Part shown: positions 33,001 through 36,000 of the stretch, one piece after another
Layout of the letters: each line of letters opens with the position of its first letter
Numbering within the stretch: the stretch's first letter is position 1
Source: Escherichia coli
Lineage (GTDB): Bacteria > Pseudomonadota > Gammaproteobacteria > Enterobacterales > Enterobacteriaceae
Direction: 5' to 3' (one strand)
DNA: 64,000 nucleotides
Assembly: GCF_045037415.1 (NCBI RefSeq)
Contig: NZ_CP173440.1
Made by a program: the position numbers

Positions 33001-36000
33001 AAGAAGTGCCACGAAGTGGCACAATCATTTATAAGACTTCGAAACCATTAGCAATATATTTCGCCACCAGTCTTTCAACTGCTGAATCCATTGCTTCGGA
33101 ATTGTCTTCGGAAAATGTGGCATCACGAACTAATCGTTCAACCGGCATAATTCCATTAACAACTTCCCCTTCTGTGACGTATACCTTGGTTCCAATCATC
33201 CCACTGTCTAATTGACGAGAGTCAACGCGAACACGTTTAATATACTTATTACCTTTCATATGTTTGCTCCTTAAAGGCGAGCAAACATACCCATGCGGGT
33301 ATATAAGCCCGCTTGGGAAGATAATAGAAGTTAAACTAGGCTTCTGATTAAATCTTTATACAAAGAATTTAATTCAGAGATATCGTTTATTTTTTTAAAA
33401 TAAACACCATCAAAGCCTAGAGGTTTATCAATGCCATAACCGACACAAACAATATCTATGCCATGTTTTTTAGCATTTTTAACTGCTGAGCATACATCAT
33501 CTATTGATTCAGATGGGTCACCATCAGTCGCAATAAAGATAACTTTACGTGAGAAATTCAAACGTGAGAAATATTCCACGCATGAATTAATCGCTGTCGC
33601 AGTTGGGGTATGTAATCCGCTAGAAACATTTTCATAATTTGAAAAGCAACTAGATACAGATTTATTAAAAAACTTAAGTATATCTATATAACCTTCTTTT
33701 TGAACTGGATAAACAAGATCAGCAACATCAATATTGTTCACCGATTCACAAGCAAGGGTAAATGCAAGATTTGCTTTTAAGGCTAAAACTGATACGTCAT
33801 GCATTGATACAGAGATATCACGCAGGTTTATTACACCTACATCAGACCTTTTGTATCCCTCCCCGTTTTTCTTAAACACAGAAGTTGCACCCATAGGTAC
33901 TTCAACAAGCTTTCTACTATGAATACGAGATCCACGATCAGTTAGCCTGTTGTTACGCCGTACAGTTTGCTTATTTAAAGAAGAAAGTAACTTTCTTAGC
34001 TCACGAGAGTGAGCTAGAGCATTATTATAGTCCTCCTCGGTCAGAGTGATAAAACCAAAACGAAAACCAAAGTTTTGAATTTCAGCATCACTGAAAGAAG
34101 ATGCCATTTGAGATATGGATTTTTTTATAGCTTCATGAAAATCATGAGAATTATCCTGTTCAGCCTCTGTGTCTAGGTATTCATCAAGATCTTCAATCGC
34201 CTTTCTTAATTGCGCTGGTGAGAAACTTTGTGTTGTACGTGCAGAAGTTACAGAACCATCAGAGCCGTCAGAGCCGTCAGAGTCATCAGAGCCGTCAGAG
34301 TCATCAGAGCTGTCAGAGTCATCAGAGCCGTCAGAGCCGTCAGAGTCATCAGAGCCGTCAGAGTCATCAGAGCCGTCAGAGTCATCAGAGCCGTCAGAGT
34401 CATCAGAGTCATCAGAGCCGTCAGAGTCATCAGAGCCGTCAGAGTCATCAGAGCCGTCAGAGCCGTCAGAGTCATCAGAGCCGTCAGAGTCATCAGAGCC
34501 GTCAGAGTCATCAGAGTCATCTAATCGGTTTTGTTCTTCTTTATCTTTTAGATCATCACGTAACTTTTCTAGTTCTTCATATAGTTTCAATCCTAACTCA
34601 CATGCCATAAGAGTTGAATTAACCCCTGTGGCTTCGAGAATCAAAGAATCAAAACGGTCTTTCATGTCGAATAGAACAGTATCAGCAAGAGCAAAAAAAT
34701 CATTCAATATTTCAGGAACGCCTTCTTGCCCAAGCTGATTTACACGAAGCTTGTTTAAAATATACATTTCAATGTAGGAAACGATATTAGAACCGTCACC
34801 AGTCATGTTTCCATCACTAACCATAAACGAATACATTTCAGCAAGCATTACTTTTGAAAGCGGAAACTGATTACCAGTTTTCTCTTCCATCTGAATGTCT
34901 TCGAAGAGGTTAATAGAACGATGAAGCCTCTTAAGTTTTATTTCCGCTTTTTTCTCCTCTTCTTTAGAGGAAAAACTAGCGGTTCCGTCAGGCATTATAC
35001 ATTCGAAGCCAGGTTGTTTTGATAAATATTCATTTTCAAAATCAACAGTAGTTTCGATTTCTGTATAACGATTATGACCACCTTCATGACATATCCAGCC
35101 GCTACATAGCTTCCAGTATTTGTCATTACTAAAGTCACCGTTTGGTAAAAAAATAGTTTTAGATCTCATGTTAATGCATGGTGTTGCATGTGGCCCCAAA
35201 AAAAGAACATTGAGTTCAGGATCAGCACCAATCACACGAGCAAGATTATCTACAGCCAACTTACTACGAATAGAATTGTTTAGCTTAATAGTCATATAGC
35301 ACCCATAAAGTTAAATGGGCGCACCCATGTGGGTTTGCCCACAAGGGATTAGAAGATATCAAAAATTAAATGGAGTCGAGAAAGTTACTTTTTTCTGGAC
35401 TACATCATTATTTGAGACCGGAGTTATCGAAGAATTAGATGTCTTAGCAGGAATACCATTTCCAGTAAAAGGATCAACGAAAATGGAACCAGTATTATTA
35501 GCCAAATTATCATCTAAATCGTTAAAACGATTTTTAATTTCGGCAATAAAACCTGTTACAAGATCGTCACCATCCATAATTCTGTTCAAACGATTCGTAT
35601 CACTTAGCAGTAATAACCATTCGCGAAACAAACTCATGTGAAGGGGGGAATCCAAATTACCAGAAGGAAGATGGTTTAGTACGCTTTGGATAGAGTCAGC
35701 AATTTTAGTTGCACGATCATCCAAAAACATAAAACTTACAACCTTATCTTTTAAATTTGACAGTTTTTCTACGAAAGTCTGGTCAATTTTAGGTTTTGTG
35801 CAGGAAGCATAGATAGATTCAGCAGTCAGAGCAATATCCTGTATTAAACCAACTGAATAGCGGTCTCCTAAATCCTCTCCATCAATTGACATTGGTGTGA
35901 AAGGGATTGGATGGCTAATCTGGAAAAGAAACGATTTTTCGAAGTCATCTTTAGTCATTCTTAATTTTTCAATTAATTCTGCCAATTTAGGACTTCTGTC

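Follow-up and report, generated by a model that had tools for sequence, protein, structure and literature searches.

A tandem repeat tract was analyzed in a stretch of 64,000 nucleotides (the window) from Escherichia coli (assembly GCF_045037415.1, contig NZ_CP173440.1), the source of which is an IncHI1B/IncFIB (pNDM-MAR-type) conjugative megaplasmid of Klebsiella. The tract is located in frame within a gene encoding a CobT-like protein and its copy number differs between plasmids while the reading frame is kept. It is probably an in-frame coding minisatellite that encodes a disordered, polyanionic tether of the CobT type, the length of which is largely tolerated. The gene and its parts are as follows.

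33331-35295, minus strand: CobT-like gene, named "VWA domain-containing protein" in RefSeq, 654 residues; based on the open reading frame (ORF), annotation and a profile match to CobT in the PDB.
34522-35295, minus strand: N-terminal domain (residues 1-258), homologous to CobT_N (M48C-peptidase-like); based on conserved residues and the CobT alignment.
35074-35088, minus strand: HEGGH motif of the N-terminal domain, residues 70-74.
34885-34902, minus strand: EDIQME motif of the N-terminal domain, residues 132-137.
34252-34521, minus strand: coding variable number tandem repeat (VNTR) of 30 units of 9 bp (DDS/DGS), residues 259-348; polyanionic linker, predicted to be disordered.
33334-34251, minus strand: C-terminal region (residues 349-654), a helical extension plus a VWA domain with an intact MIDAS (metal ion-dependent adhesion site; D493, S495, S497, T563 and D591).

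The array covers 270 bp and encodes 90 residues (44 Asp, 31 Ser and 15 Gly) with a net charge of -44. Decoding of the coding strand identified 14 copies of GATGACTCT (DDS, Asp-Asp-Ser), 14 copies of GACGGCTCT (DGS, Asp-Gly-Ser) and one copy each of the variants GACAGCTCT (DSS) and GATGGTTCT (DGS). The two main types are irregularly arranged, and the order of the units in a letter code is AABABABBABABAABABABABBAJABABBD. Tandem Repeats Finder described the array best with a period of 63 bp (4.1 copies, 97% matches, score 499), while a period of 18 bp gave 14.8 copies with 92% matches. The GC content of the tract is 0.55 compared to 0.32-0.39 elsewhere in the gene, which makes it a GC-rich island. 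The 18-mer AGAGCCGTCAGAGTCATC, composed of the two main units, had 17 matches with at most two mismatches, every one of them within the tract, and none in 100 dinucleotide-preserving shuffles. The head-to-tail units are therefore far beyond chance, and an origin of the array as a chance repeat was rejected. Other ORFs crossing the tract on both strands were also rejected as artefacts of the stop-free repeat.

A preliminary description had placed about 16 perfect 18-bp repeats, encoding roughly 100 Asp/Ser/Gly residues, at 34228-34524 inside a vWA protein. The array is real and lies in frame in the 654-residue ORF. The true limits are slightly inside those first given, which coincide with a spurious ORF on the plus strand, and the peptide has 90 residues. 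The size equals 15, and not 16, units of 18 bp. The elementary unit is 9 bp (three codons) in two types of irregular order, so that the array is near-perfect instead of perfect.

The gene matched 556 plasmid records in PLSDB, including 525 from Klebsiella and 523 predicted to be conjugative. Every approximately ninth of the ranked matches was taken for a length survey, and 57 records were usable, being neither disrupted by an insertion sequence (IS) nor partial. These displayed 23 gene lengths from 1787 to 2118 bp. Among 45 close relatives there were 21 lengths (Hunter-Gaston diversity 0.92), and in 42 of the 45 the difference from the window was an exact multiple of 9 bp. Identical non-reference alleles recurred across laboratories and countries, with 2010 bp in 10 sampled records and 2037 bp in five. 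RefSeq holds a different WP protein accession for almost every allele, while the neighboring proteins keep single accessions.

A total of 21 loci, chosen for differing length, were fetched with 2 kb on each side, and 22 arrays were decoded between fixed gene anchors. In all 21 loci, the gene was constant in length over its first 774 bp and over its last 921 bp. The whole length difference was located in the tract, which contained 12-47 units. One further record contained nine units, giving an overall range of 9-47 units (27-141 residues) in complete plasmids; alleles of 4-13 units obtained in a word-indexed protein search with the tract removed were treated as possibly collapsed and excluded from this range. 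No internal stops were found in the 22 ORFs examined. The tract is therefore polymorphic in copy number with a unit that is a multiple of 3, as in other coding VNTRs. The variation between isolates proposed from the window alone was borne out, as were in-frame changes that spare the vWA domain; an invariant repeat number, which would have contradicted the proposal, was not what the homologues displayed. In a lineage of 84% identity, the array was broken by many variant units and all eight sampled records had the same length. This fits with purer arrays being less stable, although the eight records may be closely related.

Length differences were found between plasmids that are otherwise nearly the same. 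Over 5.7 kb of non-repeat sequence, no two plasmids of the close group differed by more than 35 substitutions. The window and locus L002 had no substitution in this flank and were 14 units apart; L004 and L006 likewise had none and were 15 units apart. Flank distance and unit difference were not correlated (rho 0.06), in a set of loci picked for differing length and hence biased. An apparent divergence of 34-40 mismatches in the left flank was discarded, since it was caused by a 1-bp indel in the window. Alignment of the unit strings resolved the difference between the window and L002 into a single 126-bp deletion, and the window contains an exact 79-bp direct repeat, the copies of which are offset by precisely 126 bp. 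L003 and L006 differed by one indel of three units, and L013 and L016 by single-unit changes. The array ends were kept (5' AA...; 3' ...CFD or ...BBD) and variation was internal, in clean blocks. At least 39 records, from many countries, contained the exact 1965-bp allele of the window (100% identity). Thus, the alleles are not hypermutable on the scale of an outbreak.

These changes suggest a mechanism of slippage or unequal exchange, in which near-identical 9-bp units within 63-bp and 126-bp higher-order repeats would misalign during replication or recombination. Such misalignment would add or remove whole three-codon modules in steps from one unit to 14-15 units. With a 9-bp unit, no such step disturbs the reading frame or the VWA domain downstream, and the locus therefore changes length with no on/off switching. 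A phase-variation (contingency locus) reading was rejected for the same reason, as expression is not switched.

The peptide pattern was conserved more strictly than the DNA that encodes it. Among 689 units from the 22 arrays, 652 (94.6%) encoded DDS or DGS in 12 nucleotide versions. The other 37 were rare, mostly conservative variants without stop codons. In lineages of 84-89% identity the same pattern was kept by means of other codon versions, for example GATGGTTCT and GACGACTCT. Since codon versions differ while the peptide pattern is kept, selection appears to act on peptide composition and not on a DNA motif.

The relationship of the protein to CobT became visible only with a family profile. 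Searched alone, the window protein gave a weak VWA match and no CobT match in Pfam, a low-complexity artefact (HxsA4, below cutoff) in NCBIfam, families of unknown function plus a marginal "cobalamin biosynthesis" match in PHROGs, and no match with phmmer against the PDB. An exhaustive search with the tract removed detected 689 cluster representatives at E≤0.001, of which 60 were aligned for a profile. This profile matched cobaltochelatase CobT (9uka_G) with E=1.7e-36 over both domains, profile positions 5-444 aligning to CobT residues 24-461. Pfam CobT was detected in 40 of the 60 family members and CobT_C in 25. The acidic stretch of CobT (residues ~222-300, rich in D, E and S) fell in the linker columns of the HMMER alignment. 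The N-domain, acidic linker and C-terminal VWA/MIDAS domain that define the CobT family (PF06213 plus PF11775) are all present, and the suggestion that the protein is CobT-like with an acidic stretch was upheld. By sequence comparison, the window protein is a remote CobT homologue and its tract is therefore homologous to the flexible tether of CobT.

Residues H70, E71 and H74 (HExxH) were invariant in the 60 homologues, E132, D133 and E137 were conserved in at least 90% of them, and the MIDAS columns D493, S495, S497, T563 and D591 were again invariant. HExxH with a downstream acidic third ligand is the pattern of zincins (M48-like), and the N-domain agrees with it at the motif level only. Brucella CobT has RQARH aligned to the invariant HExxH of the mobile-element family. 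Judged by the HExxH motif together with the E/D cluster, the N-domain could be an active metallopeptidase that is coupled to an AAA+ motor, and the plasmid branch may have kept a peptidase activity absent from CobT. The VWA domain dominated the fold searches, in which it was structurally closest to the MIDAS domain of MDN1/Rea1 and the VWA domain of NorD, and no peptidases were returned for the N-domain. An AlphaFold2 model of a short-tract allele had an overall predicted local distance difference test (pLDDT) score of 87, with a coil of pLDDT ~65 between helices 228-261 and 282-297.

Brucella CobT was described in a preprint of July 2026 on CobSTN as an M48C-like N-domain, a linker of ~90 residues and a VWA-type C-domain (bioRxiv 10.64898/2026.07.21.739949). 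In those structures the N-domain contacts the small domain of a CobS subunit at the periphery of the ring, while the C-domain docks on the ring face, its shaft entering the pore when nucleotide is bound. CobN lies between the two CobT domains, and the linker is disordered in every state (bioRxiv 10.64898/2026.07.21.739949). By analogy, the tract would be a flexible and strongly negative tether linking the two folded halves of a CobT-type adaptor. Selection would act on tether composition (the D-[D/G]-S pattern) and not on exact sequence or length, so that length changes would be largely tolerated and could outpace point substitutions, while alleles would stay stable within epidemic plasmid lineages.

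The linker was also compared over the family. In 117 of 131 full-length representatives the most acidic segment was at the linker position, with a median length of 55 residues and extremes of a few residues and 198. Sixteen of these had clear internal tandem repeats, built from unrelated units of 3-17 residues. At the homologous linker, locus L023 has a 15-bp unit in 18.5 copies (6770-7056) encoding (QQQDG)n, and L024 has a 48-bp unit in 7.8 copies (6655-7028) encoding a 16-residue acidic unit. A third homologue has an acidic linker without a DNA repeat. The acidic linker is therefore ancestral, and its construction from tandem repeats lineage-specific and recurrent.

Several other explanations of the tract were considered. 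The differences in copy number could be collapsed or expanded repeats in assemblies, and the three of 45 sampled lengths that are not multiples of 3 point in this direction, as do the small irregular tract deletions of the out-of-frame record L030, which look like long-read errors; a second out-of-frame record, L031, has an 11-bp insertion in another part of the gene. Draft-like contigs of 12-122 kb were also the source of the shortest alleles (4-13 units). This account is very improbable for the polymorphism as a whole, since the remaining 42 lengths differ by exact multiples of 9, arrays share conserved ends and differ by clean internal blocks, and identical alleles of 2010 bp (10 records) and 2037 bp (five) were recovered in different laboratories and countries. 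Long reads far exceed the tracts (81-423 bp) in length, and each allele has a distinct WP accession while neighboring proteins have one each. Assembly error explains at most a minority of alleles. A function at the DNA level, in which the 9-bp units would be protein-binding repeats (iteron-, centromere- or silencer-like) and the peptide secondary, could draw on the GC-rich nature of the tract and on a 42-bp array near repB, a probable DNA site on the same plasmid. This reading was rejected as contradicted by the codon evidence and is extremely unlikely: unit nucleotides differ between lineages while D-[D/G]-S is kept, 94.6% of the units are synonymous versions, distant homologues with an unrelated DNA repeat or none always have an acidic peptide there, and the tract position matches the protein linker of CobT.

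It is also conceivable that an AAA+/CobT-like machine is tuned through the length of its linker, which would be under selection and quick to adjust as at a contingency locus, with hosts, clients or antagonists maintaining or diversifying alleles. The 45 plasmids indeed display 21 lengths (D=0.92), a very high allelic diversity, tandem repeats arose on repeated, independent occasions at this position among distant homologues, and in true CobT the client is clamped between tethered domains, so that reach could matter. We regard such adaptive tuning as unlikely, because one allele is unchanged in at least 39 records of an internationally spread plasmid, family members work with linkers of a few to ~200 residues, the 9-bp unit gives no on/off switching and the gene is IS-disrupted in at least three otherwise complete plasmids; tuning of length has no direct support. 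Somewhat better placed, though still doubtful, is an acidic tract that is active beyond tethering, as a nucleic-acid mimic, a divalent-cation binder, a pseudo-ligand of the MIDAS or a partner of a basic ATPase surface, with copy number setting its capacity. Such a role could coexist with a tolerated tether. Acidity, beyond flexibility, is conserved in the family (117 of 131) and in CobT, acidic regions precede the MIDAS or integrin-I domains of Midasin and BchD/ChlD, and MIDAS sites bind acidic side chains. Against it, the linker is invisible in every CobST and CobSTN state, indicating no stable contact in the homologue, and many family members have very short acidic segments.

Some points weigh against an in-frame minisatellite encoding a largely tolerated tether. 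The tether role is carried over from CobT, which the window protein matches only through the profile, and no CobN or cobalamin genes are near the module. We infer the rate and the mechanism of length change (slippage or RecA-dependent exchange), and the choice of loci by length biases the missing correlation with flank distance. Some variation could be assembly error, given the three out-of-frame lengths, and repeats can collapse in contigs of 12-122 kb such as the apparent drafts that hold the shortest alleles. The complete plasmids sampled all had nine units or more, and selection could be setting this lower limit.

The CobT-like gene is part of a module, the other members of which are given below.

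36527-37579, minus strand: AAA_5 (MoxR/CobS/Midasin-class) ATPase, 350 residues, the presumed motor partner; based on TIGR01650, phrog_249 and PDB matches.
35359-36435, minus strand: DUF3150 protein, 358 residues, between the ATPase and CobT-like genes; based on RefSeq annotation and on PF11348 in all syntenic homologues.
31674-32918, minus strand: toprim/primase-like gene, the downstream neighbor; phrog_510 DNA primase, E=6e-30.
40308-42131, minus strand: UvrD/Rep-like helicase, the upstream neighbor; TIGR01074, E=1e-50.

The ATPase matched phrog_249 with E=8.5e-28 and TIGR01650 (CobS) with E=5e-8, the latter at 32 bits and thus far below the curated cutoff of 558. Its sequence matches in the PDB were Midasin AAA (3e-13), NorQ (7e-6) and CobS (8e-5), and similarity to CbbQ was also found. 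A fold search with the DUF3150 protein returned generic helical bundles only. The order helicase, small ORFs, AAA_5, DUF3150, CobT-like, small ORF and Toprim_3/DUF7146 (31674-42131 in the window) was kept across elements with CobT-like proteins of 28-37% identity (L023, L024, L025 and L026), and a UvrD-like helicase was at the same position in L023 and L025. The module neighbors are replication and transfer backbone genes. No CobN-like ORF and no cobalamin genes were found in the 64-kb window or in the syntenic loci; lacking CobN, the module is not a cobalt chelatase in this context. PADLOC gave no match for the CobT-like or DUF3150 protein and only weak P-loop-level matches for the ATPase. 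Literature searches yielded neither a description of this repeat nor a functional study of this module.

A representative of the matching plasmids is pKpvST147B_virulence (NZ_CP040726.1), with IncFIB/IncHI1B replicons, a relaxase of the MOBH type and mating-pair genes of the MPF_F type. Between its RepB replicon and a transfer region is a block annotated, in this order, as UvrD-like helicase, three hypothetical genes, AAA family ATPase, DUF3150, VWA domain-containing protein, a small ORF and toprim. The large ORFs tested in the window included TraN, TraU, TraW/TrbC, an MCP, IS elements and a group II intron, while the largest (1413 residues) had no family match. In at least three otherwise complete, predicted-conjugative plasmids the CobT-like gene was interrupted, by IS903 in the N-domain (L027, NZ_CP050380.1), by ISEc52 in the VWA domain (L028, NZ_OM975894.1) and by ISEc33 (H2, NZ_CP117746.1). 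Plasmids can therefore persist without an intact copy of the gene, at least in those hosts.

Other features of the window were observed beside the module. A 42-bp tandem array at 20400-21516 is located directly downstream of repB (19376-20260), with partial inverted copies of its unit upstream of the gene (19222-19282); RefSeq calls the array a hypothetical CDS. It has 26.6 copies in the window and 24.6 in the otherwise near-identical NZ_CP040726.1, and resembles an iteron or incompatibility array with a variable copy number of its own. A 1.9-kb insertion at 23260-25169, absent from NZ_CP040726.1, holds a group II intron reverse transcriptase/maturase ORF (23624-25111; TIGR04416, E=8e-112). 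At 31374 the window lacks 1 bp that is present in all 21 other plasmids compared, which frameshifts a 179-residue hypothetical gene (WP_004181766.1), and there is a 1-bp insertion at 45257 inside a TnpB gene. Both indels reflect either genuine pseudogenisation or sequencing errors in homopolymers. Two genes for TnpB, of the RNA-guided endonuclease family, are located on either side of an IS200/IS605 tnpA (43027-44376, 44662-45087 and 45167-46351), and in the reference annotation a Phd/YefM-RelE/ParE toxin-antitoxin pair is located just upstream of this region.

As a speculation to which we give only a small chance, the module might be an ATP-driven machine other than a chelatase, composed of an AAA+ motor and a CobT-like adaptor with an active HExxH site and acting together with DUF3150, that remodels or cleaves a host or plasmid client during establishment or replication, the tether length being selected and quickly adjustable for reach or capacity. 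If this were true, a machine with an adjustable tether would explain the independent tandem repeats at the linker in many family members.

The tract is a highly discriminating (D ~0.92) and frame-neutral length marker in the conserved backbone of IncHI1B/IncFIB resistance-virulence hybrids. IncHI1B/IncFIB (pNDM-MAR-type) plasmids are spreading across borders in Klebsiella pneumoniae, and the marker separates plasmids identical over the 5.7-kb flank, yet is stable in at least one epidemic lineage. The repeat also explains the large number of RefSeq protein accessions for one gene and the tendency of this gene towards mis-assembly and split annotation. The natural allelic series (9-47 units), together with the range in the family, bears on the length and acidity needed in a CobT-type tether, and is relevant to the new cobalt chelatase structures, in which the CobT linker is invisible. 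Furthermore, a mobile-element branch of the CobT family is flagged, which keeps HExxH and travels with DUF3150 and replication genes.

Among known systems, CobT of CobNST (PDB 9uka; PF06213/PF11775) is the closest. It shares an M48C-like N-domain, an acidic disordered linker (~90 residues in Brucella) and a VWA/MIDAS C-domain, the linkers align, and the presumed partner is likewise an AAA+ ATPase of the CobS/MoxR class. The plasmid module differs in being without nearby CobN or cobalamin genes in a conjugative plasmid backbone, in the DUF3150 gene between the ATPase and CobT-like genes, and in an invariant HExxH instead of the RQARH of Brucella CobT. The window protein alone is below the Pfam CobT and NCBIfam thresholds, and its linker is encoded by a near-perfect 9-bp VNTR.

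Other relatives share parts of this architecture. The window ATPase was closest in sequence to the AAA modules of Midasin/Rea1 (E=3e-13), and the VWA domain was structurally nearest to the MDN1/Rea1 MIDAS and the NorD VWA of the NorQ-NorD system. In Midasin a long D/E-rich unstructured region precedes the MIDAS domain, as the acidic tract precedes the MIDAS here. Midasin, however, is a single giant eukaryotic polypeptide of ribosome biogenesis, and NorD is without an M48C-like N-domain. To our knowledge, the acidic regions of Midasin and of MoxR-VWA proteins have not been reported as DNA tandem repeats. In the Mg-chelatase subunit BchD/ChlD, the AAA+ and integrin-I domains are joined by an acidic proline-rich linker, so that an acidic flexible linker is again just before a MIDAS-containing VWA/integrin-I domain in a chelatase-type machine driven by AAA+. 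In BchD/ChlD an N-terminal AAA+ module takes the place of the M48C-like domain, and the pathway is chlorophyll biosynthesis.

With regard to the repeat itself, the Ser-Asp (SD) "R regions" of staphylococcal ClfA/Sdr proteins are Asp/Ser repeats with short codon-multiple units, which are strain-variable and form a frame-keeping spacer. They are extracellular, wall-spanning adhesin stalks with an unrelated unit and family, while the window tract is in a presumably cytoplasmic protein. Phase-variable contingency loci share the presumed misalignment of tandem repeats with the tract, but its 9-bp unit gives no switching and its alleles are stable across epidemic lineages. The tract is an ordinary coding-repeat polymorphism.

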